In this document: piece after piece, positions 4,678-18,342 of the stretch | Layout of the letters: every line of letters starts with the position of its first letter | Numbering within the stretch: position 1 is the stretch's first letter | From: Chitinispirillaceae bacterium | GTDB lineage: Bacteria > Fibrobacterota > Chitinivibrionia > Chitinivibrionales > Chitinispirillaceae | Length of the DNA stretch: 24,672 nt | Assembly (NCBI GenBank): GCA_016930275.1 | Contig: JAFGHA010000179.1 | Location: 1-24,672 of the forward strand | Direction: 5' to 3' | The notes under the pieces: generated by a model | Told to the model about the DNA's origin: nothing | Seen by the model: only the letters and a program-made list of their open reading frames with translations | Database searches by the model: none | Made by a program: the position numbers and the translations under genes

Positions 4678-5571
4678 ATGTACCTCTTCTCACGAAATTA
4701 TTTCAAAGACGTTTTTCAGAACCCGGGCGACGCGCTGCTCATCCTGCGACGACAACGGAGTATCGTCTGGTACCAGTTAACCCGATTCTTCATTTTCTGG
4801 CGGATCGTGTTTTCGGAGTACGTGCTTAACCACTGCATCACCCGCAGTTCGGCGCTCGCCTATGCACTGCTGCTCGCCATCGTGCCGCTGGTGACCACCG
4901 CGGCGTTCATGATCGCCGGGTTCATCGAGGTGCAGCCCGAGCAGGTGCGGCAGTTCTTCGCACTGCTGCTGCCGTTCGCCCCCGATACCGTCCTTGAATA
5001 CATCACGATATTTTTTGTCAATGCACAGAAACTGCGCGGCGTGGGAATCATCGTGCTGATGGTGGTTGCCGTGGGGCTCTTCGGCAGTGTCGAGGAGTCG
5101 TACAACACCATCTGGAAAGTCGTCCGGTCACGGTCGATCTTCGTGCGGTTGCGTACCTTCACCATGGTGATGGTCTACAGCCCGCTGCTGTTCCTGATGT
5201 CGTTCCAGTTCCGGCGCAGCGAATGGTTCGATCTGGTATCGGGGTATTTCCTGCCGCTCGACATGGTACCCTTTCTCCTCATGGTACTTGCCTTCACCAG
5301 CCTTATCGTATTCGTTCCCAACACCAAGGTAGACTTTGTTTCCGCCATTGCCGGCGGACTCATTTCCGCGCTTTTCTTTGAATTGGAACGGCGGGGATTC
5401 AGCATGATCGTCAGGGCGTCCTTCCAGACCCAGACGATCTACGGCGCGGTCGGCATGCTGCCGCTCTTTCTGCTGTCACTGTTTCTGGCCGCGCTGATCA
5501 TTCTCTTCGGGGCACAGGTCGCGTACGTCTTTCAGAACTTCAAACCGCTCCTGCGTGCGAAACGGCGCTAG
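4678..5571 (+). CDS. YihY/BrkB-family polytopic inner-membrane protein
   Basis: The family-typical RSSALAYALLLAIVPLV motif sits near the N-terminus. At least 6 hydrophobic helices follow, and the tail ends with GAQVAYVFQN, as in YihY/BrkB proteins. Confidence 0.8.
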   Translation: MYLFSRNYFKDVFQNPGDALLILRRQRSIVWYQLTRFFIFWRIVFSEYVLNHCITRSSALAYALLLAIVPLVTTAAFMIAGFIEVQPEQVRQFFALLLPFAPDTVLEYITIFFVNAQKLRGVGIIVLMVVAVGLFGSVEESYNTIWKVVRSRSIFVRLRTFTMVMVYSPLLFLMSFQFRRSEWFDLVSGYFLPLDMVPFLLMVLAFTSLIVFVPNTKVDFVSAIAGGLISALFFELERRGFSMIVRASFQTQTIYGAVGMLPLFLLSLFLAALIILFGAQVAYVFQNFKPLLRAKRR

Positions 5572-5580
5572 GACCGGCGC

Positions 5581-6027
5581 GTGGGCGACTACAAAACCTA
5601 CATCACCATCCGCATGATGCTTGATTGCGTCGAGGCTTTCATCCGCAAACGGCCACCTCCCGTCCTGCGTTTTTTCTGTAACAAGTACGAGCTGACCGAC
5701 GCGCAGGCTTCCGGTATTCTCAACTGGCTCATTCACGAAGGCTTCCTGCACATCGTGGGTGACCGCAACGCCGGGTACGTTCCCACGAGGGACTTTTCCC
5801 AGACGCCGGTGATCGATATCATCAACGCGATCGAAAACCAGAACCGTCGCATCCCGAAGGCTCCCGACGACATCTGCCGGGAATTCGTGCAGGGCATGCT
5901 CGGCACCATCGCGGAACACTGCAGCATGATCATGAAAGATCTCACGTTTGCAATGCTCATCGAAAAAATCGAACAGCAGCGGGGAATTGAACGGAAGAAC
6001 AAAGGATCGCAGCGGAAGAAAAAGTGA
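5581..6027 (+). CDS. hypothetical protein, possibly winged-helix (Rrf2-like) DNA-binding
   Basis: GTG start 9 nt after the yihY-like stop. The segment LTDAQASGILNWLIHEGFLHIVGDRNAGYVPTRD resembles an HTH plus wing. The start codon is uncertain because in-frame Met codons occur at 5614/5617. Confidence 0.45.
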   Translation: MGDYKTYITIRMMLDCVEAFIRKRPPPVLRFFCNKYELTDAQASGILNWLIHEGFLHIVGDRNAGYVPTRDFSQTPVIDIINAIENQNRRIPKAPDDICREFVQGMLGTIAEHCSMIMKDLTFAMLIEKIEQQRGIERKNKGSQRKKK

Positions 6028-6127
6028 CCGGTATGGCAGGAGTGCGGTGAAGTCGGAATATTTATCAATCGTCAAAACCACTATCTAACCAAAATTCATC
6101 GGTCGCCGGTCCACCACCGCCACCCGG

Positions 6128-7972
6128 TCAACCCATTGATGCATCCTCATGCATCCGGCAGATGCACATTCTCTCCCGCTCGAGAATCGCGGGGATGTTC
6201 TGAACCGTCTGAATATCATATTCCTTTATCTCGTCCGGTAACTCCTCCCAATCCACCAGATAAGGACTGATTCTTTTTTCAACATTTTTCTCATTCCCCT
6301 TTTTCCACCCGAAGAGAAACCGCTCCGCGTTCCACCGGCGGTGTTCCATACGGGCAAGCAGCTCGATTTGCTCAGGAGTAAATACCGTCACCCGATCATC
6401 CTTCCCGCATTCATCCGTATCTACAGTATCATACCCGCATGCCCGAAGTTTGACCGGCAGGTGATCGGCCTGCTGCCGGTTCGAATCGCGCAGCGAGGAA
6501 TCGAGTTCCTCCCAGGAACACAGGGAAGGAGACTGAGGATCTCCCCCCTCGAAAATCCGCCTTTGCCGGTAGTCCTCATGAATCGCCCGTGCCGTGTGGT
6601 CAAGTTCCCAGCATTCGAATATTGCAGGCGTGCAGGTTTTGTCGATTCTGCCGAATCCGTGAATATTCAAAAGTTCCTCCCCTGCCTCTTCACTGCGCTG
6701 GAGCAGTACCCCCAGCCCGGAATTGTCATCCAGCCTGATGTACAGGGGGACATCACATTCACCGGTCAGACTCCGGAGCCGCAGCGCGCAGTTGACCGAT
6801 GCCATCGGATCGTTCATGCAGAAGACGACATAAGGAAGCGTATCCGGCAGTGCCATCTGTTCAGCCACGAAGTCACTGAATTCCCGTGTGTTGAAATCCA
6901 TATCTTTAAAGGAAATAGCACTGCACGACGCCAGCGCAGGAAGCACCTGCAGCAGCAACCCGCCTTTCTGAACGGCATCACGGTCGACTACCGTTACCTT
7001 CATCTTTTTCATATTGGCGAAATGGCCAAGCTTCACCGCCTGTAAAATAACGCTCTCCCCCATCGCCCCGAACCCCGCCACAATGCAGTGTATGATCGTG
7101 GGATCATCCGGCGCAATCGGTTTACGGTCAAGCGGAAACTCCCGGAAAAGCATGCGGGCGGCAAGATCGTTGACCCGCACTATCCGGGTGGTACTGTTTT
7201 TTGAAGAGTTTCTGAAAAAACCGCTGCTGGTGCTGATATCGGAAAGCAGCAGGTTGTTCACCGCCAGGTAACAGTTGACACGTCTCCCCGTGGTTTTTTT
7301 CCGGCAGCCGATCAGTCCGTTCACTTTCTCGCCGATTTCAATATTGCTGCCGTCGTCGCCGCTGATCGCATACACCAGCGCCGCTTTGGTGATATTCACT
7401 TTACGCAGCACCATCTCTTCGGCGGCGTCGCCAATGACAACGGGCACTCCCAGTTCCCGGCAGGTTGCGATAAGGTCATTCTCCGCATCGACCTCCACCG
7501 CCACCACCTTTCTGCCGAGGGCACGGTACCCCCGCGCGAGTTCGAGCCCCCGTACTCCCAGACCGCAGATGACCACATGGTCCCGATACAGAGGAAGACG
7601 GAAAAACCGGTGCAGGAGTGCGGCAAATGTTTTAAAAGCAGCATACCCGAAGGTCAGCGGTGCAAGCAACCGTGCGATCGCAAGAATGAGTGGCACCCGA
7701 CTTCCGGTCTCCAGATTCGATTCGAGTACAAAGAGCTGCGCAGTGAGCAGCAGTATTTCCAGAACACTTTGCGGCTGCAGTTTATGCGCGTCCCGCAGCA
7801 CGAAGTAAAACCCTGCTGCACCGAGTACGGCTGCGGTTGCGGCAAGCAGGATAAACACCCGGATCTCATTCTCCCGCCACCAGCTACGCAGTGCATTGGT
7901 ACGGTACACAGGAGCAAGTTCAGTACCAGACCTGAAATATGACGATTGACATGATTTTCTGTTTTTATTCAT
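6128..7972 (-). CDS. channel-like membrane protein: 2 TM helices with a re-entrant-like segment, two TrkA-N/RCK Rossmann domains, and a C-terminal RyR-like domain
   Basis: TM helices are IRVFILLAATAAVLGAAGFYFVL and PLILAIARLLAPLTFGYAAFKTFAALL, with SVLEILLLTAQLFVLESNLE between them and no TVGYG-type filter. Two GxGxxG Rossmann starts are present: VVICGLGVRGLELA...VVAVEVD and CIVAGFGAMGESV...VTVVDRD. The C-terminus ARAIHEDYRQ...WEELD... and LARMEHRRWNAERFLFGWKKG...ISPYLVDWEELPDEIKEYD fits the RyR-domain consensus (EH.RW...GW..G...HP.L.P...L...K..D). GGAG lies 10 nt upstream of the ATG. Confidence 0.8.
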   Translation of the reverse strand: MNKNRKSCQSSYFRSGTELAPVYRTNALRSWWRENEIRVFILLAATAAVLGAAGFYFVLRDAHKLQPQSVLEILLLTAQLFVLESNLETGSRVPLILAIARLLAPLTFGYAAFKTFAALLHRFFRLPLYRDHVVICGLGVRGLELARGYRALGRKVVAVEVDAENDLIATCRELGVPVVIGDAAEEMVLRKVNITKAALVYAISGDDGSNIEIGEKVNGLIGCRKKTTGRRVNCYLAVNNLLLSDISTSSGFFRNSSKNSTTRIVRVNDLAARMLFREFPLDRKPIAPDDPTIIHCIVAGFGAMGESVILQAVKLGHFANMKKMKVTVVDRDAVQKGGLLLQVLPALASCSAISFKDMDFNTREFSDFVAEQMALPDTLPYVVFCMNDPMASVNCALRLRSLTGECDVPLYIRLDDNSGLGVLLQRSEEAGEELLNIHGFGRIDKTCTPAIFECWELDHTARAIHEDYRQRRIFEGGDPQSPSLCSWEELDSSLRDSNRQQADHLPVKLRACGYDTVDTDECGKDDRVTVFTPEQIELLARMEHRRWNAERFLFGWKKGNEKNVEKRISPYLVDWEELPDEIKEYDIQTVQNIPAILERERMCICRMHEDASMG

Positions 7973-8148
7973 CGGCGATTACTCCGGTACACGGATTTCA
8001 GAAAGAGCTAAACAATACAGTACCGTCACGAAATGGTACATGGAAAAATATATATTCCCCATGACGCTGCGTTTGTAGGCGACCGTGATACAATAGCCAT
8101 TACATACAGATCGTTATGTTTATTCAATGATATAAAATAAGTGTCGTC

Positions 8149-8190
8149 ATCCCGGCGACCGCGAAGCAGCGGCGTAAGCCAACCCGGGAT
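8149..8190. repeat. imperfect nested hairpin (REP/MITE-like palindromic element) in a divergent intergenic region
   Basis: ATCCCGG (8149-8155) pairs with CCGGGAT (8184-8190), and an inner CCGC/GCGG stem encloses GAAGCA. The flanking ...GTCATCCCGGCG...CCCGGGATCCAG... resembles the short GC-rich palindromic elements scattered in many bacterial genomes. Confidence 0.3.
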
Positions 8191-8282
8191 CCAGTAGAAA
8201 GATGTCGTAACGCACTTATCTATTCCGGGCTCCGGCCTGAGGCAGAGTATTCATCAGACAACCACATTTAAAGAAACCGCTC

Positions 8283-8744
8283 ATGCAGTCAATCTTCGTT
8301 CTCTTTGCCTTCTGTATTCTGCTGGGTTCTTCGACTGGGAGTACCATAGTTACACAGGAAACCGTCCCGGTCGCGTCGGCCACTTCCCCTACCGGTACCT
8401 TCAAACTGATAACCGTCAACCGTGACTCATCCGTTACGGAAACCGGAACAGACTTTTCCACGGTAGTGAGTAACGATACGGTACCGGTACTCATTCATTT
8501 TTCCGCCGAATGGGCCGCGCCCTGCAAGACAATGCATCCGGTCCTGGTTGAAACGGCGAAAAAGTTCAGTAAACGGGCATTTGTCGGTACAGTGGATATC
8601 GAGGAGTCACCGGAAGTAGGAGCGTATTATATGATCCGCTCGGTTCCGACGTTTGTGGTTCTTGTGAAAGGACGGGAGGTCGCCCGTTCCGTCGGCATGA
8701 TGACCCAGAAGAAGCTTGCCGGTCTGGTTGAGATCAAACGGTAG
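8283..8744 (+). CDS. secreted thioredoxin-fold protein with a degenerate monothiol active site (WAAPC)
   Basis: The signal peptide MQSIFVLFAFCILLGSS is followed by a Thr/Ser/Val-rich linker. The Trx core is VLIHFSAEWAAPCKTMHPVL...VDIEESPEVGAYYMIRSVPTFVVLVKG. The canonical WCGPC is replaced by WAAPC, so the first Cys is lost and the second is kept. Confidence 0.8.
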   Translation: MQSIFVLFAFCILLGSSTGSTIVTQETVPVASATSPTGTFKLITVNRDSSVTETGTDFSTVVSNDTVPVLIHFSAEWAAPCKTMHPVLVETAKKFSKRAFVGTVDIEESPEVGAYYMIRSVPTFVVLVKGREVARSVGMMTQKKLAGLVEIKR

Positions 8745-8754
8745 AACGGTGGAT

Positions 8755-11700
8755 TCATTGTTTCTGTTTGCCGGTACGGCAAAACTCCTGGTACCGTTTA
8801 ACGGCTGCAGTGTGCTCTGATTCGGGAACATACTTGCTCTCAATCTTAGCACCAATTATCCCCTCAGGTAGATCAAAGGTTAAGAGTGTTTCACCCCGCA
8901 GGAGTACCCATGTTTTCGTGGTCGACCTGCATCGATCCATTTCTCCGAAAAACAACGTCAAGGCACCGGTATCAGCAATAGTCCAGTTTCCATAGCGCAG
9001 GAAAATATCCCCGGGCTGCATTCCAAGCGAATCGGCAATGGTGTTCGGAAAAACCTGAAAGATTTTCATGGTGACCACCACTTGTTTCCCGTTAATATCG
9101 TAAAATGTTTCGGATGTAATCTTTCCGCTGTCATCGTATGCCTTGTCCCACCTGGTATATCCACCCCTGGTTCGAACCGGTTTCCCATCAAGTCCGAGGA
9201 AAAGACTGGTGGTTACATTTCCACTCTGATCATACGTATCCCTGCATTTGGCATATCCTTCAGCCAATAAAAATGGAGCACCTTCCGAATTAAAAAATTC
9301 TCTCAGCTTGACATGATCAACAGTATCATGGGTAACGATCATTTTTGCATAACCGAAATTACTTATTACCGGTTTACCCTCGGTACCGAACGTCTCATAG
9401 GAGCATAGCTCTCCCCGCGCGTTGTAACTGAAGGCCGTACGGGCGTATCCATCCTTGTTTAAAACCGGCTTTCCATCGATGCCGAAGAAGGCTTCCGACG
9501 TTGTATTACTTTGGTTATCATATGTTAATTTAGTCGAAGCATAACCTCCAACAGCAACCGGTTTCCCGTCTAAACCAAAGGTAGTAACTTCCGTACGTTT
9601 CCCCTGCCGGTTGTATTTTGCAGTCCATCTCGTATAACCGTCCTTCTGCAGGACAGGCAGTCCTTTTTCATCGAAATAACTCACCTCAGTTCTATTTCCA
9701 TGCTCATCGTTTTTCATCCGCACCTTGTGGTATCCATCAGCCCAGAGCAATGGTCGTTTTTCTGAATCGAAAAGTGATATCTCTTTTAAAAAACCGTTCT
9801 CATCATAGTCGTAACACTGCCATGTGTTTATTGAAAAATCATAAGCGGACGTCTTTCTTACATTGACATCATAACCTTCTTTAACTAATGTATCTCCCTT
9901 TTCATCATATTGATAAATAGACTTTGCGATACCTGTACTTTTTACACCCACCGCACCGCCGTCAACATCAAGAAATTCCACAGTGACCTTGTTACCGTAA
10001 GCATCAAAAGTTTGTTTCATCCTGGCAAAACCTTCATTACACCGTTGCAATTCTCCGTCGGTACCAAACATTTCAATCTCTGTGCAGTTATTATAAATAT
10101 CATGGTGATATATGTATTTTGAAATCCCGAGTTCGTTAACCACCGGCTGTCCTTTTATACCGAAGGCCTCTTCTTCAATCATATTGCCACGATCATCATA
10201 TCGTCTGACAATTTTTGCCGATCTTTTACTGTTTTGTACGGGAAGACTATCCGCTCCAAAAAATTCACTGACAACCGGGTTGCCACGCTCATCCCGGGAT
10301 ACAACGGCACGCGAATACCCGTCAGGAATCATTACAGGCTGTCCAACCGAATCGAAATATGCGACCGAAATGATATCTCCACTTTCATTATAATCCAATT
10401 CCAGTTTCGAGTAGCCCGTTTTTTTATTTGTCACAGGTTTTCCTGCGATCCCGAAATATTCAGTCTGCAGACAATTTCCCTGGTCATCGCAGATATACCG
10501 TTCACTTGCCACACCTTGTTCATTCAACGCCGGTTTATCATCCGCATCAAGATACACCACTTCTATAATATTCCCTCGTTCATCATAGGTGTAAATCCGT
10601 GTTGCATACCCAACCCCCTTCCTGCCCGGATTCTCATTCGCATCAAAATACCGTTCCTCCTCCACAACATTGAATTTATCATGGTATTTCAACTCCAGTT
10701 TCGCATACCCGTCTTTGCCGACAACATAATTCCCATTCGCATCAAAACATTCAATTTGAACCCTGTTATTTCTTTCATCATATCTATAGGCAAAACTTGA
10801 ACATCCATCTTTGCTCATTGCAGGTTTTCCATCAATGCCATAATAGGAACCCGATATCTGTAATCCCCGGCTATTGTTTACTAAAACAATTTTTGAGTAA
10901 CCGCCCATATACAACGCAGGGTTCCCGACCGTATCACGATACTCTTCAGAGGTAACATTTCCCATCTGATCATAGGTCCACACCCTTTTATGATAGCCGT
11001 ATTTGTCCATTACAGGGCTGCCATTATCCCCCAGAAACGCCTGGGATACCTTGTTCCCATTCCGGTCATATTCATACACTTGCTTTGAATATCCCTCGTT
11101 CAGAATCGCGGGCCGGCAATCCAATCCAAAACACGATACTGATGTACTATTCCCGTAAGAATCATAGGTAAACCTTATCTCCGCACATCCGGCTCTAAAA
11201 ATAAAAGGCTCACCATCCGGCCCGATGTATTCCTGACTAACTCCTTCACCATCCTTGTTCCATACCTGTTTTGTTCCCATTAAACCATTTTTAAGTGCCG
11301 CCGGTTCTCCCTTCGAATTCAGATATAAAATCCATATTACTGTCTCTGCATCTTCCAATCTGGTCATCTCGCCGAAACTGCCAGTCGCATCACAGACATT
11401 ATTTCCGAGATAATCACGATAGCGACGTACTATAGTTCGACCATTAACGTCCAGAACCAGCAGGTGCTGACTGACTTTCGATTTTCGTTGAATATTGGTG
11501 AACCCGGCATCCGCATTAAATTCCACTCCTCCCTGATGAGCTGTTGTGTGGTCAAGGCTCTTAAGATCGATATAAATCGAATCCGGCCTGGCGTTACTGT
11601 CGGACAGACCGTAACCATAGTTCCACACCATAACAACTTTCCCCAGCCAATCTTTCTGCACGATCCGCTCCACTTTCCCGTCCTGCCGGTAGTCGATGCT

Positions 11701-12588
11701 CAGCTCCGCCACCCCTAATAACCCCCCCTCCAGATCCATCAGCTGGCCTTTACTGTTGACATACCCCGCTCGGACCACCTTCCCCCCGCGCTCTTCCAGC
11801 CGCCAGGTGCGATAGCGGTGGGAATGAAATTTCCGGGATACCCACCCCACCCCTTCGGGTGCGCCCCACCGCCAGGTAATGTTGCGGTAATACCGTACCT
11901 TGACACGGGTGTAATCCCACCAGGCCAAATATCCTCCCGCGATAAGCAGCACGACCGCCCCAATCGCGCCGATCTGCAACCGCAGCCGCCGCATACGACG
12001 CTGATGCTCCCGCCGTCGCAGTTCATCATAGGAACAACCGAGCACATGCGCCAGGATTCTCAGAAGCGCATTTGATTTGAGCGTTTTCAGCGGTTCAGAC
12101 GCACGCAGCCGCACATCCGCAAAGAGCGGTTCGGCATCCTCGTCTCCTTCAACGGCTGTTCCGTCTTCCCGCTGCACCACTTTTTTCAGTTCACGCAAAG
12201 CCTGCGGAAACGATTCTTCCGGAGTGCCTTCAATAAGCAACGGAATAATGCAATGCCCGCGCCCCATTTCCCTGAACTGCGCCACCTCCTGGTTTACCCA
12301 GCGCGATTTCGGAGTCGACCGTGAACAGATCACCACCAGGAATTTCGATGCGGCAAGAGCGTTTTTTATGTCATCCTTGAGGTCTGCCGAGGTTGGCAGT
12401 TCGTCCTCGTCGCGGAATACTCTCTTGAGCTTTGCGGGAATACCCTTTTTCACCAGTGCCGCAGGCGTCCGGAACGTTTCCAGCGCATGTATCAGCCACT
12501 GTGCATACTCGCGGTCGGCATCAAGATGCCGGTAGCTTATGAAAACGTCATATTCGAACACACTGCCTTTGTCGAGTTCTTCAGACAC
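8755..12588 (-). CDS. N-terminal TIR domain, single TM helix, long extracytoplasmic 32-aa repeat array and a C-terminal PDZ-like domain (1277 aa)
   Basis: GTG start with AGGAGA 7 nt upstream. The TIR region is YDVFISYRHLDAD...FLVVICSRSTPKSRWVNQEVAQF...IIPLLIEG, with the candidate catalytic Glu at aa 101. The TM helix LQIGAIGAVVLLIAGGYLAWW covers about aa 204-224. At least 22 repeat units follow. The PDZ-like end is SLGMQPGDIFLRYGNWTI...WVLLRGETLLTFDLP (about nt 8836-9075). Confidence 0.9.
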   Translation of the reverse strand: MSEELDKGSVFEYDVFISYRHLDADREYAQWLIHALETFRTPAALVKKGIPAKLKRVFRDEDELPTSADLKDDIKNALAASKFLVVICSRSTPKSRWVNQEVAQFREMGRGHCIIPLLIEGTPEESFPQALRELKKVVQREDGTAVEGDEDAEPLFADVRLRASEPLKTLKSNALLRILAHVLGCSYDELRRREHQRRMRRLRLQIGAIGAVVLLIAGGYLAWWDYTRVKVRYYRNITWRWGAPEGVGWVSRKFHSHRYRTWRLEERGGKVVRAGYVNSKGQLMDLEGGLLGVAELSIDYRQDGKVERIVQKDWLGKVVMVWNYGYGLSDSNARPDSIYIDLKSLDHTTAHQGGVEFNADAGFTNIQRKSKVSQHLLVLDVNGRTIVRRYRDYLGNNVCDATGSFGEMTRLEDAETVIWILYLNSKGEPAALKNGLMGTKQVWNKDGEGVSQEYIGPDGEPFIFRAGCAEIRFTYDSYGNSTSVSCFGLDCRPAILNEGYSKQVYEYDRNGNKVSQAFLGDNGSPVMDKYGYHKRVWTYDQMGNVTSEEYRDTVGNPALYMGGYSKIVLVNNSRGLQISGSYYGIDGKPAMSKDGCSSFAYRYDERNNRVQIECFDANGNYVVGKDGYAKLELKYHDKFNVVEEERYFDANENPGRKGVGYATRIYTYDERGNIIEVVYLDADDKPALNEQGVASERYICDDQGNCLQTEYFGIAGKPVTNKKTGYSKLELDYNESGDIISVAYFDSVGQPVMIPDGYSRAVVSRDERGNPVVSEFFGADSLPVQNSKRSAKIVRRYDDRGNMIEEEAFGIKGQPVVNELGISKYIYHHDIYNNCTEIEMFGTDGELQRCNEGFARMKQTFDAYGNKVTVEFLDVDGGAVGVKSTGIAKSIYQYDEKGDTLVKEGYDVNVRKTSAYDFSINTWQCYDYDENGFLKEISLFDSEKRPLLWADGYHKVRMKNDEHGNRTEVSYFDEKGLPVLQKDGYTRWTAKYNRQGKRTEVTTFGLDGKPVAVGGYASTKLTYDNQSNTTSEAFFGIDGKPVLNKDGYARTAFSYNARGELCSYETFGTEGKPVISNFGYAKMIVTHDTVDHVKLREFFNSEGAPFLLAEGYAKCRDTYDQSGNVTTSLFLGLDGKPVRTRGGYTRWDKAYDDSGKITSETFYDINGKQVVVTMKIFQVFPNTIADSLGMQPGDIFLRYGNWTIADTGALTLFFGEMDRCRSTTKTWVLLRGETLLTFDLPEGIIGAKIESKYVPESEHTAAVKRYQEFCRTGKQKQ
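9076..11190 (-). repeat. coding tandem repeat: at least 22 consecutive 31-34-aa units, consensus G-Y-[AS]-K-x5-Y-D-x2-G-N-x6-[YF]-F-G-x-D-G-K-P-V-x4
   Basis: Read from the translation at aa 467-1171. Examples are GYSKQVYEYDRNGNKVSQAFLGDNGSPVMDKY, GYSKLELDYNESGDIISVAYFDSVGQPVMIPD, GYASTKLTYDNQSNTTSEAFFGIDGKPVLNKD and GYAKCRDTYDQSGNVTTSLFLGLDGKPVRTRG. More degenerate copies extend upstream to about nt 11800. The units are diverged at the DNA level, so this is not a slippage-type repeat. Confidence 0.75.
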
Positions 12589-12692: not shown

Positions 12693-14543
12693 TCACCATG
12701 CGAAAATTCCCCCGGCGACAAGGAACAATACGGCACCAATTACCGCGGCTAATTGCCACAAACGCCGTATGCGACGCTGCCGTTCCCGCTGTCGAAGTTC
12801 GTCGAACGAGCAGCCCAGCACTTGCGCAACAATACGTAAGAGCGCCATAGACCTAAGTTTCTTCACCGATTCTCCTGACCGCGGCCGCACATCGGCAAAA
12901 AGCGGTTCAACATCCTCGTCACTTTCAACAAATGTTCCATCCTCGCGATTCACTACTTTTTTCAGTGCACGCAGGGCCGGCGGAAACGATTCTTCCGGCG
13001 AACCTTCAATGAGTAGTGGGATAATATGGTGCCCACGTCCCATCTCCCTGAACTGCACGACCTCCTGGTTTACCCAGCGTGATTGCGGTGTTGCGGGGGA
13101 GCAGATAACCACCAGAAAATTCGAGGCGGAAAGTGCTCGTGTTATATCATCTTTAAGATTCGCGGAGGTTGGCAGTTCATCTTCATCCCGGAAAACCTTT
13201 GTCAATCGTGACTTAGTTCCTTTTTTGACCAGTGGCAGAGGAGTGCGGAACATTTCGAGCGCATTGACTAACCACAGAGCATATTCACGGTCGGCATCAA
13301 CATGCCGGTAACTGATAAATGCATCATACTCATACCCGTTTTCAATACCGGCATTTTCCGGTACAATCATTATTCGTATACTATTGTAAAGTTCACTGTA
13401 TAGTCGTATAGCTAAGGCTGGGATTCGAAATTTGTTCATTGCCCTATTGTCGAGCACACGCAGATATACTCCAGCTACCAGCCAGCAGGAAACAGTCCAG
13501 TACCCGCCATACCCCGCGAATGGCATAGGAATAAAGGGTACCAGCCGCACCACCCCCGTTGATCTGGTTATATGTGCAATTGCTAAAAAAATAAGAATAA
13601 ATAACAGTACCCGGGCGACTTCTCGACTGTTTTCATCGCGTATTTTTCGACATCCTGCCCACATTACATATGCCAGTACTGCATAAACTCCACACAGTAT
13701 CGCCACTCCGATGCCACCGAACTCATACCATAACATTTGCAGCGTGGAATGAGCCGCCAGTAGTTCATACCTGACAGTATTCTTATTCAAACACTGTTGA
13801 CCGTTACGGTCCTTTGTATCCGATTGCACCCACGACTTGTAGCAGTTGCGACTGTCATGCAACCGGGCCGCCGCACGAACCTGATGAGCAGACGCTTTAT
13901 CGTATACTACCTCGTTATAGTCCGGATTGAACTTCACCAGCAGTAATATCGCCACAACACCACACACCACCGGCACAAGTGCAAGGGTGATTTTTATACC
14001 GGGCATACGCGAGACCAGCACCATATACAAAACCGTTGCATTGAAAAGCAGCAGCATCGCCGTGTCCGGCTGCAGTAACAGAAGCCCGTTGACGGCAACG
14101 GTCAACCCCGCGACTGCACCCGGATATTTCCAACCGTCCTTTTTACGGCAATCAGTGAAAATCAGATGCACCAGCAGCGGCAGAAGAAGGAGCAATGCCA
14201 AAGTTCCGGAATGCAGCGGGAAAGGCCCAAACCAAACAATCTGGGGCTCTCCAGAGCAAAAAGGACCCCATTGACCGCATTGGGCTTGGGCTGTAAGGAG
14301 GAGAACTCCCGCAGCTGCAGCAAGGTGATACCTGCTTCCACGCCAATTAACTCTGACCAGCACAAGCGATGTCGCAAGAACAATTCCGAAACAGTTTCTG
14401 CTCAGGAATCGCATGAAATATTCGATATCGAATCCTGCGAACGACCAGAATTGCCGGGTAAGATACCCGCCGATTATCGTCAGGGCCAGCATCAAACCAA
14501 CAATCAGGACTGCTGTGCCGATATTCCGTTCGGTTGTTCTCAT
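12693..14543 (-). CDS. polytopic FtsW/RodA/SpoVE (SEDS)-like membrane domain fused to a TIR domain and a C-terminal TM helix (616 aa)
   Basis: ATG with GGAGA 9 nt upstream. In aa 1-365 the SEDS-like motifs occur in the right order: LLLLQPDTAMLLLF (compare QPDLGT), ELLAAHSTLQMLWYEFGGIGVAIL (compare PE.HTDFIF..i.EE.G..G) and PFIPMPFAGYGGYWTV (compare g.pLPf.SYGGS). In aa 405-585 the TIR region is YDAFISYRHVDAD...FLVVICSPATPQSRWVNQEVVQF...IIPLLIEG. The terminal TM helix is LAAVIGAVLFLVAGGIFAW. Confidence 0.8.
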   Translation of the reverse strand: MRTTERNIGTAVLIVGLMLALTIIGGYLTRQFWSFAGFDIEYFMRFLSRNCFGIVLATSLVLVRVNWRGSRYHLAAAAGVLLLTAQAQCGQWGPFCSGEPQIVWFGPFPLHSGTLALLLLLPLLVHLIFTDCRKKDGWKYPGAVAGLTVAVNGLLLLQPDTAMLLLFNATVLYMVLVSRMPGIKITLALVPVVCGVVAILLLVKFNPDYNEVVYDKASAHQVRAAARLHDSRNCYKSWVQSDTKDRNGQQCLNKNTVRYELLAAHSTLQMLWYEFGGIGVAILCGVYAVLAYVMWAGCRKIRDENSREVARVLLFILIFLAIAHITRSTGVVRLVPFIPMPFAGYGGYWTVSCWLVAGVYLRVLDNRAMNKFRIPALAIRLYSELYNSIRIMIVPENAGIENGYEYDAFISYRHVDADREYALWLVNALEMFRTPLPLVKKGTKSRLTKVFRDEDELPTSANLKDDITRALSASNFLVVICSPATPQSRWVNQEVVQFREMGRGHHIIPLLIEGSPEESFPPALRALKKVVNREDGTFVESDEDVEPLFADVRPRSGESVKKLRSMALLRIVAQVLGCSFDELRQRERQRRIRRLWQLAAVIGAVLFLVAGGIFAW

Positions 14544-14595: not shown

Positions 14596-17295
14596 TCATC
14601 TCTTCAGGTAAATCCCCAGCCCCGCGGCCTTCGCCAGTGCAGGAAGATCGCGGAATGGAGCCCGGTCCTTCTCCCGTTCCCCATCGAGTCGCGGATCGTT
14701 CCAGGGCAGAATACAGGGATGTTTTCGTGCAGGTTCGTCACGTACCGGACCGTACCGCCATCCCTCCATCAGCCGTTCGACATTCCAGCGGCCATGTTCC
14801 TCTTCGGCAAGAACCTCTATTCCCTCGTTGCCGATTGCCGCTTCGAGATCTTTCACCGGTTCTCCGTTTCCCTGACCCTGCGGAAGCAGTTCGAGCCCGT
14901 ACAATTCGAGCAGTCGCTTCATCTGAAATGCCTGATGTAAATTTGCCCTTTTGAAGGTTTCATCGAGTTCGTCCCATTGCGGCAGAGGGGCGCGGCGCGT
15001 TCCGGCGATGTATTTCTCGTGAAGCAGCCGCGCGAACGGTTCCACCTCACCGCGAACCGGTGAAATCACTCCGAGGTTTCCCGGAATCATCCGGCAGAAA
15101 TTCCGTATGGTCGCCTGATCATGCGGCAGTGAAAAGCAGCGTTTCCTGACGGTCGCCGACCATCGCGAAGCCTCCCCGGTGATCTCATCGGCACTGCGGC
15201 CGCTGCCCGCTATAATACCGACGGTTGCCCCGAGGGCGGCCGCAAGACGGTACTCAAAGAGCGATATCGGACCGCCGCCCGCTCCGAGCACCCGGACATC
15301 TTCCGGACGTACACCGGCTGAAAGCAGATCGATCCAGTTCTGCACCGGTTGAGCGAAGGTAAACCTTTTGGAACGCGGCACCGTGATCTGTTCATATGCC
15401 GGATGTTCGGCATCGTCATCCACATGACGCGACTCTGGCCGATACGCCTTCAACTGCGGCGACGCTCCGTTGCGCCGGGATGCGGCGATCGCATCGCCGA
15501 CGATTTTCGCGACGCCGACATCGGTGCCGCCGCAGTACACCGTTCCGTTGAATCCGTCAAGTGCGGAAGTTATCGCCCCCGAAAAGGCATCGAGTGTCTC
15601 CTGTTTGTCGCGGTCGCAGGTCCCGGCGACGATCAGTACCGGTCGTGTCGGATCGATTGACGTGTCAAGCGGAGTGAGAACGGAATCGCCACCGGTTTCC
15701 GGTGGTTCACCACCGGCCTCGACCACGACCATACCGATCGCAAGCACCTGCAGAAGCAGTTTGAGCTGCCGTGCGAAATCGGTGTCGAGCGATTTCACCG
15801 CGTCGTAGAGTTCCTGCAGGAGTTCCCGCTCTTCCGCCACCTGGCGGAAATCGGTACTTGACGCGATCCCCATGGTACAGCAGCGAAGACTTTCCGGCAG
15901 ATCACCCGCCAGAGCAAGGAGACGCGCACTGGTGAAATGGGCGAACGGCAGTTCAATCCCCGCCGTCGCATGCTCTTGGCAGCTTGCGACCGCCCCGGCG
16001 ATTGCCGACTGCATCGCGATCGCGGCAGACCGTGAACTCCTGCCGAGACAGAGCATGTGAACATAATGCCCGAACAGATAGGGATTTTCCGGAGCGAGCA
16101 GATGGGCCTGGAAATAGTAATTGCGGGCCGCCACAATACGTCTATGTGATGCAGTGTCGATCAGTTCACAACGGCCGCATTCGGCCATTGCCAGTGCCCT
16201 GACCGCCTTTTCCCGGTCGTCATCCTCAATATCCGCTTTCAATCGATGCACTATCGTGCAGAACTGCTGATCTTCGGTCAATGCATCGATATCGACGACA
16301 ACCGGCCGGGCAAGCGCGATAAGATCATCAAAACCCGCTCTGAATTCAGCCGATTTCCGTTCATGCACATACAATCGGCAGCGCGCCTCGGCAACGATAT
16401 ACCGCAACTCGTTTCGGAACGGCCCCCGCGCGGTTGCAATCCAGGGCGCACATTCCAGTACGTGTTTCCAGTCACGGAGACGACGATACAGCTTGCCGAG
16501 ACGCAGCGCGATCGGAGCCGTTTCTTCACCGAGGTTCTGTGCAAGAAGCAGCCTGAGCCGTCCGACCTCGGCCTCCATTTCTTCCTTATCAAGAAACGCG
16601 CCGTGATCGACTTCGTAGGTTTTCAACCGGTCAACCAGTGCATCGATCGAGCAGCTTGCCTCCTCGAGAACCGCCGAGAGGCGGTTCGATTCACGCACCA
16701 GTACCGCGGGAATTTCCGCTCCGCCCTTGTACAGCAGATCGTGCAGTGCATCCGCCCATACATGTTGAAGATCCGTACGGATCTGAATCTCCGCTTTACG
16801 CTGCAGCCTCGTTCCATCCGAAGCAGCCTTCCGTACCTCCTTGATCGCTTCGGCAATCGACGACGGTATCTCGATCCCGGCCAGTGCCATTCTCTGTTCG
16901 AAATCGGCGGGCAGGAGCACATCAAGATGCACCGAGCCGTACCCGAACCGCTCTACTCCGGCAACCGCAAGTTTATCCTCGCTCTTCTTCACATCGAGGA
17001 ACCGGCCGATCAACCGGTTGGCTTCTCTGACTTCCATCCCGGTATGAACGATAAGTCTGCCGCCGCACAGGTCGCCGAACTCGTGCACCGGATCGGTATA
17101 TCCCGTCTTGCGCAGAATTTTTTCCGCAAAACTCGCCGTTTCCTTGGTACGGACCGCAACCGTACCGAGCGGAGCCGTCCGGTCGCGTACCGCGGCGAGC
17201 AGCCAGGACAATATCTCTCCGAACGATTTGTAAATCGGCCGTTCATACGAAGTGAATTCCGTGATCTGTTGTTCGATAGTGACGGTACCGTCCAT
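14596..17295 (-). CDS. RelA/SpoT-family nucleotidyltransferase, helical linker, SLOG/LSDAT domain and RyR-like domain fusion (899 aa)
   Basis: The RelA_SpoT motifs lie in aa 55-190: FAEKILRK, GDLCGGRLIV, FGYGSVHLDV and AEIQIRTDLQHVWADALHDLLYK. The SLOG/LOG-like motifs lie in aa 550-705: VLIVAGT, YCGGTDVGVAKIVGD, LGAGGGPISLFEYRLA and IIAGSGRSADEI. The RyR-like region lies in aa 752-895: FARLLHEKY...WDELDE and LAEEEHGRWNVERLMEGWRYGP...KHPCILPWNDP...EREKDR. Confidence 0.9.
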   Translation of the reverse strand: MDGTVTIEQQITEFTSYERPIYKSFGEILSWLLAAVRDRTAPLGTVAVRTKETASFAEKILRKTGYTDPVHEFGDLCGGRLIVHTGMEVREANRLIGRFLDVKKSEDKLAVAGVERFGYGSVHLDVLLPADFEQRMALAGIEIPSSIAEAIKEVRKAASDGTRLQRKAEIQIRTDLQHVWADALHDLLYKGGAEIPAVLVRESNRLSAVLEEASCSIDALVDRLKTYEVDHGAFLDKEEMEAEVGRLRLLLAQNLGEETAPIALRLGKLYRRLRDWKHVLECAPWIATARGPFRNELRYIVAEARCRLYVHERKSAEFRAGFDDLIALARPVVVDIDALTEDQQFCTIVHRLKADIEDDDREKAVRALAMAECGRCELIDTASHRRIVAARNYYFQAHLLAPENPYLFGHYVHMLCLGRSSRSAAIAMQSAIAGAVASCQEHATAGIELPFAHFTSARLLALAGDLPESLRCCTMGIASSTDFRQVAEERELLQELYDAVKSLDTDFARQLKLLLQVLAIGMVVVEAGGEPPETGGDSVLTPLDTSIDPTRPVLIVAGTCDRDKQETLDAFSGAITSALDGFNGTVYCGGTDVGVAKIVGDAIAASRRNGASPQLKAYRPESRHVDDDAEHPAYEQITVPRSKRFTFAQPVQNWIDLLSAGVRPEDVRVLGAGGGPISLFEYRLAAALGATVGIIAGSGRSADEITGEASRWSATVRKRCFSLPHDQATIRNFCRMIPGNLGVISPVRGEVEPFARLLHEKYIAGTRRAPLPQWDELDETFKRANLHQAFQMKRLLELYGLELLPQGQGNGEPVKDLEAAIGNEGIEVLAEEEHGRWNVERLMEGWRYGPVRDEPARKHPCILPWNDPRLDGEREKDRAPFRDLPALAKAAGLGIYLKR

Positions 17296-17504: not shown

Positions 17505-18089
17505 TTACACCTCTCCGAATAACTGTTCCACCAGATGCTGCAACTGCCCCACCAGTGGTTCGCACCGAAGCCCCGTAGACCGTTTTCCGAACAGACGTAC
17601 CAGTTCCCGGTAATACCACCGGGCTCCATCCTTTCCACCGTTGAAACGCTCCCAGACCATATCACCGGCAATCGCGACATCTGCAGCGATATCACTGAGG
17701 TTACAGAATTTATCCGCCGCGGCAACGGCGAGAGCTTGCTCATCAACGGTCATCAGCCGGGTAATGGTCCGCTGCTTTTTTCCCCGCCACCCGTCATCCT
17801 GATCATGAAAGGTCACCTGCTCAACAATACCGGTAATTCCCTCACCGAACTCTCCCGCCAGTTCACTGCGGGTCACGGTGGTATCCTCCAGTACATCATG
17901 CAGTATACCGGCCGTTACCACCGGATCGTCACACCCGAGCCGTACCAGTGTGCGGGCGACGTCGAGCGGATGACAGAGGTACGGTATGCGGGTGCATTTC
18001 CGGAATTGCCCCGCATGCGCCCGGGCTGCGAAAACCGTAGCTTTGAAAACAAACGTTCCCTCAACGGAATTGTTTCGCCAATTCTCCAC
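17505..18089 (-). CDS. stand-alone HD-domain (p)ppGpp-hydrolase-like protein (small alarmone hydrolase / SpoT-Mesh1 HD_4 type)
   Basis: GTG start with GAAAGG upstream. ARAHAGQFRKCTRIPYLCHPLDVA...AGILHDVLEDTTVT...EFGEGITGIVEQVT matches the H..Q.R / PY..HP..VA / LHD..EDT / FG..v...V..vT signature of SpoT-type hydrolase domains. The later AAADKFCNL corresponds to the ADRL.N helix. Confidence 0.85.
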   Translation of the reverse strand: MENWRNNSVEGTFVFKATVFAARAHAGQFRKCTRIPYLCHPLDVARTLVRLGCDDPVVTAGILHDVLEDTTVTRSELAGEFGEGITGIVEQVTFHDQDDGWRGKKQRTITRLMTVDEQALAVAAADKFCNLSDIAADVAIAGDMVWERFNGGKDGARWYYRELVRLFGKRSTGLRCEPLVGQLQHLVEQLFGEV

Positions 18090-18342
18090 AAAAAACCTTT
18101 CAGAATATGCAGCACCGGAAAAGTGAATGAACGGACTGCTGCGGTGCGAACAGAAAACGGATCAGACAGGGTGAAGGACCGGCAGACGGCCCGGAAAAGA
18201 TAAAATAGTTTGTCAACTCCGCGAAAGCACGTTTTTATTGATTTTACGGTATTGCCCTGCCGGGCATGAAAAACATCTGCGCTATAAATACGGTGGAAGT
18301 ACCGGAAGGATACCGGGTAACATGAGAAGAAGGAACAGCCGG

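Follow-up and report, generated by a model that had tools for sequence, protein, structure and literature searches.

Two large genes in the window analysed here, the whole stretch of 24,672 nucleotides of contig JAFGHA010000179.1 (positions 1 to 24,672, forward strand) from a Chitinispirillaceae bacterium (Fibrobacterota; GenBank assembly GCA_016930275.1), encode proteins that end in the same domain of the ryanodine receptor (RyR) type, and the locus thereby raises the question of whether the two belong to one system and what the shared domain would do in it. The first gene (6128-7972, minus strand) was recognised as an open reading frame (ORF) with Pfam TrkA_N and RyR matches and an AlphaFold2 model, and encodes a 614-amino-acid protein consisting of a transmembrane (TM) region, two Rossmann domains of the RCK type and a tandem RyR module. 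The second (14596-17295, minus strand; Pfam, AlphaFold2 and Foldseek) encodes an 899-amino-acid protein with a RelA/SpoT domain resembling the small alarmone synthetases (SAS), a TPR-like helical region, a SLOG domain and a tandem RyR module. Both reading frames exist as a first-pass annotation of the window had described them, as does the opposite-strand gene said to separate the first from the rest: a divergent thioredoxin gene (8283-8744, plus strand; Pfam) lies between the two RyR genes, together with two same-strand genes for TIR proteins. On balance we favour, by a comparison with Thoeris and with moderate confidence, a reading in which the 614-residue protein would be one output arm of a conflict system based on NAD+-derived nucleotides, the RyR modules acting as its shared sensors.

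The annotation had claimed that the two proteins share a bipartite RyR tail, at nucleotides 6179-6601 and 14611-15042, and these ranges correspond correctly to residues 458-598 and 752-895. Homology of the tails was borne out by Pfam RyR (PF02026) matches above the cut-off of 27.4 bits in both proteins (42.6 bits at residues 536-593 of the 614-residue protein and 37.4 bits at residues 826-884 of the 899-residue protein), and by a BLASTP alignment of the one tail with the other that covered the two halves of the motif (E=2e-13, 28% identity over 153 amino acids). Part 1 of the module scored under the Pfam threshold; when its profile was compared with that of part 2 by hhalign, the two aligned in register (96.9%, E=1.9e-10), with H465 on H544, Y468 on W547 and N498 on D586. 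As judged from these profiles, part 1 is a diverged RyR repeat that represents an internal duplication of part 2, and each tail is therefore a single tandem-repeat RyR domain resembling Repeat12 of the animal receptors. In the 614-residue protein the diverged repeat 1 occupies residues 455-514 (6431..6610, minus strand; H465, Y468, W487 and N498; from hhalign and conservation), and the canonical repeat 2 residues 530-606 (6155..6385, minus strand; H544, W547, S569 and D586; from Pfam, PDB matches, Foldseek and the hhalign comparison with a phage protein described below). The tandem RyR of the 899-residue protein occupies residues 745-897 (14605..15063, minus strand; Pfam, BLASTP, conservation and Foldseek), with H759, Y762 and N785 in repeat 1 and H834, W837, H859 and D877 in repeat 2. 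Sequence matches of part 2 comprised animal RyR Repeat12 structures (E-values down to 1e-12) and a Bacteroides 'putative ryanodine receptor' (3NRT). With Foldseek the whole bipartite module matched human RyR3 Repeat12 in both cases (9l9b_B, TMt 0.56, for the 614-residue protein; 6uhb_A, TMt 0.50, for the 899-residue protein), over alignments of 183 and 203 columns.

Whether the two genes belong to one system was addressed through their relatives. A species-genome search run with a 9-sequence alignment, the 614-residue protein alone as query having found no relative, located relatives in 184 of 185,579 species genomes, patchily distributed over many bacterial phyla and some archaea; this is not the distribution of a conserved housekeeping regulator of K+ transport, the case against which the annotation had set its proposal. 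The channel-like family is large, with 5955 cluster representatives (50% identity) at E<=1e-30, and uncharacterised. Neighbourhoods were compared for the 80 top loci around relatives of the 614-residue protein and the 80 top loci around relatives of the 899-residue protein, by calling ORFs at each locus, searching them with profiles made from the window and from the first matches, and naming recurrent neighbours by Pfam. Since the profiles were home-made, all neighbour counts are lower bounds, including the TIR counts (1 to 2 of 80), for which the profile was derived from four sequences.

A second RyR-bearing gene was found within 10 kb at 28 of the 80 RCK-anchored loci, and at 15 of the 32 loci that extended 5 kb or more in both directions. 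Nearly half of these RyR partners (19 of 39) lay no more than 64 bp away, the stop codon of one gene overlapping the start codon of the next in several cases, and 30 of the 39 were on the same strand. The partners of the channel-like gene included an AAA+-RyR protein of about 900 amino acids (17 loci) and full-length RelA/SpoT-SLOG-RyR homologues (8 of 80 loci), in addition to small free-standing RyR proteins and SLOG-only genes. Reciprocally, the RelA-SLOG-RyR-anchored loci contained NUDIX (adjacent or fused; 59 of 80), DUF4062-STAND-TPR/WD40 (25 of 80), channel-like RCK-RyR (16 of 80) and AAA+-RyR (10 of 80) genes, and eight assemblies were common to both top-80 lists, against about 0.03 expected by chance. 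One locus (L102) carries on one strand RCK-RyR, TIR-WD40, NUDIX and RelA-SLOG-RyR genes, with gaps of 166, 43 and 15 bp, and another (L148) carries, also on one strand, DUF4062-STAND-WD40, AAA-RyR, RCK-RyR, NUDIX and RelA-SLOG-RyR genes. Next to a 47%-identical relative of the 899-residue protein lies a NUDIX gene, and a TIR gene is found at a distance of about 1.6 kb. Among intact relatives, those closest to the 614-residue protein lie beside a CHASE2-TIR gene (L002, 56% identity) and between DUF4062-NACHT-TPR genes (P0005, 52%), with no RelA gene at either place. The neighbours of 911 and 591 amino acids at L002 were considered as homologues of the 899- and 616-residue window proteins and rejected, being a transglutaminase-like protein and the CHASE2-TIR protein. 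Given that the linkage recurs across phyla and in both directions, the 614-residue gene belongs to the RelA/SpoT-SLOG and TIR gene set, as the annotation had argued from the window.

What the shared module does is best approached through its conserved residues. The mycobacteriophage protein RyDEP binds and cleaves 2'/3' cyclic ADP-ribose (2'/3'cADPR) through H75, W78, H100 and D117, contacts that are common to RyR3 Repeat12, and nanomolar binding of TIR signals has also been shown for other phage RyR proteins (PMC13232231). Using DyoEdafos gp78 (L164 388-804) as the RyDEP sequence, the module profile aligned with it at 93.9% (hhalign, E=1.6e-7), and the four residues fell on H544/W547/S569/D586 in the 614-residue protein and on H834/W837/H859/D877 in the 899-residue protein; H, W and D of the RyDEP ligand residues are accordingly found in both window proteins, and the H100 position is occupied by Ser in the former and His in the latter. 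Pocket conservation was scored on 95 modules in four classes (RCK, RelA, AAA and free-standing). The pocket H was kept in 94 of the 95 modules, D in 89 and W in 88, and the repeat-1 equivalents (H, Y/F and N) were nearly invariant across the same set. When the modules were compared among themselves, those encoded together clustered by protein class and not by locus, same-locus partners mostly ranking 20th to 35th of 39. Because the modules group by class and the polar pocket is near-invariant, sensing is favoured over docking, and the simplest reading of the sequences is that the RyR module would be a shared ligand sensor coupling several effectors to one signal.

The identity of that signal is suggested by the company that the modules keep. 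NUDIX enzymes cleave molecules of the ADP-ribose (ADPR) type. DUF4062 is a TIR-like NADase that yields ADPR (10.64898/2026.05.01.722283; 10.64898/2026.09.04.749371), and SLOG is the cADPR sensor of ThsA (10.64898/2025.12.03.692087). The TIR-like nature of DUF4062 is taken from those preprints and not from our own alignment, since hhalign found no relationship between a thin DUF4062 alignment and the TIR alignment. TIR, DUF4062, NUDIX and SLOG all point to NAD-derived nucleotides, and the RyR module is therefore read as a shared sensor of these. From the domain composition, the homology and duplication of the modules, the conservation of pocket residues and the recurrent gene linkage we infer a course of events, including its ligand, its activation logic, ion conduction and a role in anti-phage defence or other conflict, that could be as follows. 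On some trigger, the two membrane-anchored TIR proteins would turn NAD+ into an ADP-ribose-type signal, which would be read by the C-terminal RyR modules of the channel-like and RelA/SpoT-SLOG proteins and, in addition, by the SLOG domain. The channel-like protein, possibly a tetramer with an RCK gating ring by analogy with GsuK, would then pass ions or otherwise disturb the membrane, the RelA/SpoT domain would pyrophosphorylate a nucleotide or tRNA, and the two outputs would jointly arrest growth.

Other functions of the module have to be weighed against sensing. The annotation had suggested that the 614-residue protein might dock on its partner through RyR-RyR contacts, and in a general form of that idea the RyR modules would be homotypic or heterotypic docking adaptors that join the channel-like, RelA-SLOG and AAA+ proteins, as effector-associated domains (EADs) do in other conflict systems, ligand binding being secondary or absent. 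Such a role would fit the presence of the same C-terminal module on up to three co-encoded proteins (L011, L030 and L148), the two to four extra RyR repeats in some family members, and the six chains in the crystal of the single-repeat Bacteroides RyR protein (3nrt); moreover, the principle of EAD coupling is documented (PMC7159879), and RyDEP is a homodimer formed via helices alpha1 and alpha4 (PMC13232231). Some docking may occur, because RyDEP itself dimerises, and dimerisation could matter in a tetrameric channel. In EAD coupling, however, the copies in adjacent genes are mutually closest (PMC7159879), the opposite of what was found for the co-encoded RyR modules, and what is nearly invariant is a set of polar pocket residues (H, W, D and N) that coincide with the RyDEP ligand contacts (PMC13232231), not a hydrophobic interface. 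RCK-RyR genes also occur beside TIR or DUF4062 genes in loci that have no second RyR protein, and docking as the main function is thus disfavoured and regarded as unlikely. The same pocket residues could instead belong to an enzyme: if the modules were RyDEP-like glycosidases, they would cleave cyclic ADPR signals and thereby make the active ligand or switch the system off. Both window proteins keep the catalytic dyad H75/D117 of RyDEP in their second repeat (as H544/D586 and H834/D877), the 899-residue protein also keeps H100 (as H859), and another ADPR-degrading enzyme, NUDIX, is the commonest neighbour. Six of eight tested phage homologues bound the signal, yet none except DyoEdafos RyDEP cleaved it despite high conservation (PMC13232231), so that conserved residues are no predictor of catalysis. 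In repeat 1 the acid position is invariably Asn, and fusion to three different effector-type proteins makes better sense for a sensor than for an enzyme; we regard a glycosidase as distinctly improbable.

An alarmone-like product of the RelA/SpoT domain could also be the ligand of the modules, in a cascade leading from the TIR product via SLOG and RelA to the RyR modules of the effectors. The synthetase motifs are indeed conserved, the fold matches alarmone synthetases, and RyR3 Repeat12 binds adenine nucleotides (9l9b with ADP, 9ls7 with AMP-PCP). Against such a cascade, the RelA protein bears a RyR module of its own, and the closest intact relatives of the 614-residue protein, as well as many other loci, have TIR or DUF4062 and no RelA gene within 10 kb; because those relatives lie beside TIR or DUF4062 without RelA, an NADase product is favoured as the ligand over a RelA product, which we consider very unlikely. 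Least probable of all, to the point of being barely credible, is that the 614-residue protein is simply a conventional channel for K+ or other cations, gated by a ligand, or a regulator of K+ transport, its proximity to the TIR and RelA genes being coincidental. An RCK/KTN architecture with a GsuK-like fold would suit ion homeostasis, some sources annotate family members as 'Kch' or 'NAD-binding protein', one sub-clade lies in a housekeeping neighbourhood, and the gene in the window is a separate transcription unit. The restriction of the family to so few genomes, scattered over phyla and archaea, speaks against it, as do the lack of a K+ filter and the strong linkage, often with overlapping stop and start codons, to RyR, NADase and NUDIX genes; and the sub-clade in the housekeeping context is precisely the one without RyR pocket residues.

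The channel-like protein itself was modelled as a monomer (AlphaFold2, pLDDT 87.3, pTM 0.81). The order of elements is a hydrophobic helix (residues 22-62), a short helix (70-82), a 12-residue loop, a helix (95-124), two Rossmann domains and the RyR module. The membrane region (residues 36-124; 7601..7867, minus strand), delimited from the model, hydropathy and column conservation, comprises TM1, the short re-entrant-like helix 70-82, the loop 83-94 and TM2; in this region Q79 is invariant, a motif L-F-x-L-E-S is conserved, and TM2 is marked by A100, R101 and P105. Rossmann/RCK domain 1 (residues 131-280; 7133..7582, minus strand) carries GLGVRG (G137, G139 and G142) and E160, was assigned from Pfam and motif conservation, and matches TrkA_N (PF02254) at residues 133-220 (62.3 bits, cut-off 23.8). 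Rossmann domain 2 (residues 293-453; 6614..7096, minus strand) carries GFGAMG (G300, G302 and G305) and D330, the latter kept in 35 of 36 aligned sequences, and was assigned from the AlphaFold2 model, the alignment and the Foldseek match to the tandem RCK of TrkA and GsuK. The GxGxxG motif with its acidic residue after strand 2 is conserved in both domains in 86-100% of the 36 sequences. The topology proposed by the annotation (TM, short helix, TM, tandem RCK) is therefore upheld by the model and by both GxGxxG motifs, with the qualification that only the first Rossmann domain passes the Pfam TrkA_N threshold. In a Foldseek search the best PDB match of the model was GsuK (E=1.4e-10), followed by TrkA, MthK and Slo1, and full-length GsuK chains aligned over about 524 columns at 12-13% identity. 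The absence of a TVGYG-type selectivity filter, likewise noted in the annotation, was confirmed: GYG, GFG and GIG do not occur in residues 1-130, G.G motifs being confined to the Rossmann folds, and the family consensus at the filter position is LQLFVLESG.V.G.

A number of observations weigh against the favoured reading, several of them against the idea that this protein conducts. The GsuK match is a whole-chain match, for which the RCK part, and not the TM part, may alone account. The hydrophobicity of TM2 is only moderate, and the loop that follows the short helix, ESG.V.G in the majority of the family, is replaced in the clade of the window by ESNLETG, EANLDAA or KSSFGTN. The 614-residue protein has no Pfam Ion_trans_2 match, the profile of the TM region found no PDB sequence at E<=10, and hhalign comparisons of it gave no relationship with KcsA (0.3% probability) and 2% probability (E=0.021 for one comparison) with a pore sequence of the bacterial sodium channel NavAb. 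An in-register resemblance of Y..LQLFVLES (residues 70-95, region of window positions 7735-7751) to Y..FQVMTLES(W), the P1-helix and filter stretch of NavAb, was, given this 2% probability, not counted as evidence. At the genomic level, about half of the fully flanked loci have no partner within 10 kb, the 614-residue gene is cut off from the rest as a separate transcription unit by the divergent thioredoxin gene, and a promoter scan of the intergenic region 7973-8282 found no sigma-70-like site, a negative that is uninformative here. The NUDIX, DUF4062 and AAA-RyR genes common at other loci are absent from the window, and no PADLOC model matches the 614-residue protein. Within the pocket, proteins of the RCK class have Ser, Thr, His or Asn at the position of H100, and ligand specificity may therefore differ from that of RyDEP. 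Finally, a sub-clade (P0006-P0010, 45-46% identical) no longer possesses the residues of the RyR pocket, with no Pfam RyR match, and in L165 (10001-11794) it is found among the housekeeping genes parAB, gidAB, trmE and yidC, with no conflict genes; it looks like an orphaned or re-purposed branch, and the coincidence of pocket loss with housekeeping context fits a link between pocket and system.

Taken with the structural model, these results support a protein that is channel-like at the level of the fold, in which a pore is hypothetical; the label 'channel-like' rather than 'channel' was chosen because there is no K+ filter, the loop is variable and the TM profile has no PDB match. The part of the annotation's effector proposal that concerns a channel-like fold thus stands, and the part that concerns a pore gains nothing from the sequence of the TM region. 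We put forward only tentatively, as a possible but doubtful extension of the shared-sensor reading, that the family may consist of prokaryotic membrane channels gated by ADPR or cADPR, with a Repeat12-type RyR sensor, working from one operon with TRPM2-type SLOG/NUDIX modules and TIR/DUF4062 NADases.

The related loci also showed variation in how the module is deployed. Free-standing tandem RyR proteins (166-346 amino acids) are encoded beside RCK-RyR genes (L048 11759-12259, L070 10814-11377, L073 7619-8659 and L029 8296-8964), and could by analogy with the phage RyR sponges be built-in signal buffers or regulators. SLOG-only genes of about 300 codons lie directly upstream of RCK-RyR (L045 1398-2294, E=6e-68; L049 2005-2922, E=1e-63; both against the SLOG part of the RelA-SLOG-RyR profile), with DUF4062-STAND genes downstream. 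NUDIX is fused N-terminally to RelA-SLOG-RyR at several loci (L030 3192-6095, L056 5763-8708, L140, L150, L157 and L163) and C-terminally to an AAA-RyR protein (L030 7679-10867), and one RelA-SLOG-RyR relative (P0138) has a KaiC-like ATPase domain. The AAA+-RyR partner (L008, L010, L012, L028, L041, L064 and L073) begins with about 430 residues that lack a Pfam match, and in some of its members both RyR repeats are canonical (L038 4909-7635, L063 and L064). Longer channel-like proteins (750-1300 amino acids; P0146, P0147, P0149, P0151 and P0156) have two to four extra RyR Pfam matches after the module. The closest relatives of the 899-residue gene (L167, identical to L084, 4671-7329 and 16161-16830; P0125) are situated amid transposases and toxin-antitoxin genes (PIN/FitA and HipA), an island-like setting of a kind not seen in the window.

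Pfam matches of the 899-residue protein are RelA_SpoT (PF04607) at residues 49-192 (41.1 bits, cut-off 27) and the SLOG family LSDAT_prok at residues 551-710 (25.9 bits, cut-off 25.4); its AlphaFold2 model (pLDDT 86.0) is divided into the SAS fold, the TPR-like helical region, SLOG and RyR. The N-terminus superimposes on SAS1 (5dec) with a Foldseek TMt of 0.80, and the synthetase motifs (K51, S55-F56, K59, D75-L76-C77-G78, R80, E169, Q171, R173-T174 and H178) are invariant in 20 homologues. The usual bacterial TIR motif is S.W..E. Both TIR proteins contain the motif S-R-W-V-N-Q-E, the Glu of which is, from S.W..E, probably the catalytic one. The 1277-residue TIR membrane protein (8755..12588, minus strand; Pfam TIR_2, 51.8 bits) has its TIR domain at the N-terminus (residues 11-150, SRWVNQE motif), followed by one predicted TM helix at about residues 205-225 and a remainder of about 1050 residues that is probably extracytoplasmic and for which no informative Pfam or PDB match was found; a faint YD-repeat match and an avidin-like match near residues 1120-1190 were seen there. 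The G+C content is 0.42-0.43 at 9-11 kb compared with about 0.55 around it, and positions 8755-11970 may represent a horizontally acquired or fast-evolving extracytoplasmic sensor domain. The polytopic 616-residue TIR protein (12693..14543, minus strand; Pfam TIR_2, 49.1 bits) has a membrane region with a sub-threshold FtsW/RodA-like match, a TIR domain at residues 404-540 and a C-terminal TM helix. Over TIR domain, linker and TM helix the two proteins are 73% identical (residues 404-616, 12693-13334, against residues 11-223, 11920-12558), and this reflects a recent duplication event by which one TIR-TM cassette became joined to two distinct membrane sensor bodies; tandem repeats were sought in the TIR genes and none were found. 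The TIRs of L053 (TIR-TPR) and L102 (TIR-WD40) share 35-41% identity with the TIR clade of the window, the value for the 1277-residue protein itself being 35-39%.

The four long genes have one orientation, on the minus strand (17295-14596, 14543-12693, 12588-8755 and 7972-6128), and the flanks of the window are ordinary (GH57, ferredoxin, BrkB/YihY, a pectate-lyase-like beta-helix protein and amine oxidase). The thioredoxin, whose fold is preceded by an N-terminal extension of about 50 residues, and the small ORFs 17535-18203 and 5476-6081 recur at none of the 160 related loci and were discounted as parts of the system. For the other window proteins PADLOC gave only weak PDC-S33, PDC-S66 and ThsB matches, and the NCBIfam model for Thoeris type III ThcB4 reached 18 bits, against a cut-off of 220.

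In the literature searched, the term 'RyR domain' was found in connection with TIR/NAD immunity only in the RyDEP preprint, where it refers to viral proteins (PMC13232231). RyR-bearing effectors are not mentioned in the Thoeris survey, the DUF4062 preprints or the 2020 paper on conflict systems (PMC7159879), an earlier mention of RelA-SLOG-RyR being possible, for example in the 2015 NAR paper that defined SLOG/LSDAT; the survey itself has zero occurrences of 'RyR' and mentions the ryanodine receptor family only as cADPR-activated calcium channels (10.64898/2025.12.03.692087). The sequences suggest a form of TIR/NADase signalling whose sensor domain and set of effectors are new, and of which no description was found in the literature searched: a RyR module borne by three effector-type proteins that are recurrently encoded with TIR/DUF4062 NADases, NUDIX and SLOG, across many phyla and also among archaea. 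Were the shared-sensor reading true, NAD-based immunity would gain a new sensor domain together with GsuK-like channel-type, RelA/SpoT and AAA+ effectors, the phage RyR-domain sponges would be explained as mimics of the host receptor, and a tractable bacterial model would be at hand for the tie of RyR Repeat12 and TRPM2-type SLOG/NUDIX to animal ADPR/cADPR signalling. The cADPR sensitivity of animal ryanodine receptors has long been debated. Should the more tentative notion of an ADPR-gated channel hold, RyR would serve cells generally as a receptor for NAD-derived immune signals, on at least three types of effector, and that sensitivity would have a bacterial immune ancestry, testable on small soluble domains.

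Comparison with known systems shows what the proposed one has in common with each. GsuK, the multi-ligand-gated K+ channel of Geobacter sulfurreducens (4gx0, 4gx1, 4gx2 and 4gx5), has like the 614-residue protein two TM helices, a short helix and two RCK/Rossmann domains per chain, and according to the entry titles its RCK domains have been crystallised with ADP and NAD; the 614-residue protein keeps both GxGxxG...D/E motifs. Unlike GsuK, the latter has no TVGYG-type filter, carries an additional C-terminal tandem RyR and is encoded with NADase, RelA-SLOG and AAA+ genes. RyDEP resembles the window modules in its PF02026 fold, in its bipartite build with a diverged first and a canonical second half, and in its link to TIR/ADPR biology, but is a free viral counter-defence protein of 138 amino acids, acting as a glycosidase or sponge, whereas the module here is found at the C-terminal end of large proteins of cellular origin, a placing that hints at a role as receptor. 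Animal RyR Repeat12 (9l9b, 9ls7, 6uhb and 6uhi) likewise consists of tandem repeats forming one pseudo-symmetric domain, with a similar fold (TMt 0.50-0.57), and binds adenine nucleotides according to the entry titles; there it is a peripheral domain of a six-TM Ca2+ release channel of 5000 amino acids, while here it is found on two-TM RCK, RelA-SLOG and AAA+ proteins.

As in Thoeris (types I-XI; 10.64898/2025.12.03.692087), TIR genes in the window, with a catalytic-type motif (two TIR_2 matches, 49-52 bits), adjoin genes for effector-type proteins, and a SLOG effector (ThsA) as well as a membrane or ion-channel type of effector (type X) exist among the described types. None of the described effectors (ThsA, ThsC to ThsL) is reported with RyR, RelA/SpoT or RCK domains in that survey, and systems of the window type differ further from Thoeris in being multi-effector, in often having DUF4062-STAND in place of TIR, and in the near-constant presence of NUDIX. 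With the small alarmone synthetases and the toxSAS CapRel (5dec and 7ztb) the N-terminus of the 899-residue protein has the SAS fold and synthetase motifs in common, but its SAS domain continues into a TPR-like region, SLOG and RyR, and an antitoxin-type C-terminal domain is absent. TRPM2 is an ADPR-gated cation channel with N-terminal SLOG/MHR and a C-terminal NUDIX domain of the NUDT9 type. A parallel to it lies in the encoding of SLOG, NUDIX and a channel-like protein together with an ADPR-producing NADase; unlike in TRPM2, the parts here are separate polypeptides and the channel-like protein is of the RCK and not the TRP type. The Pfam name of the SLOG family in the 899-residue protein is itself 'SLOG in TRPM, prokaryote'.

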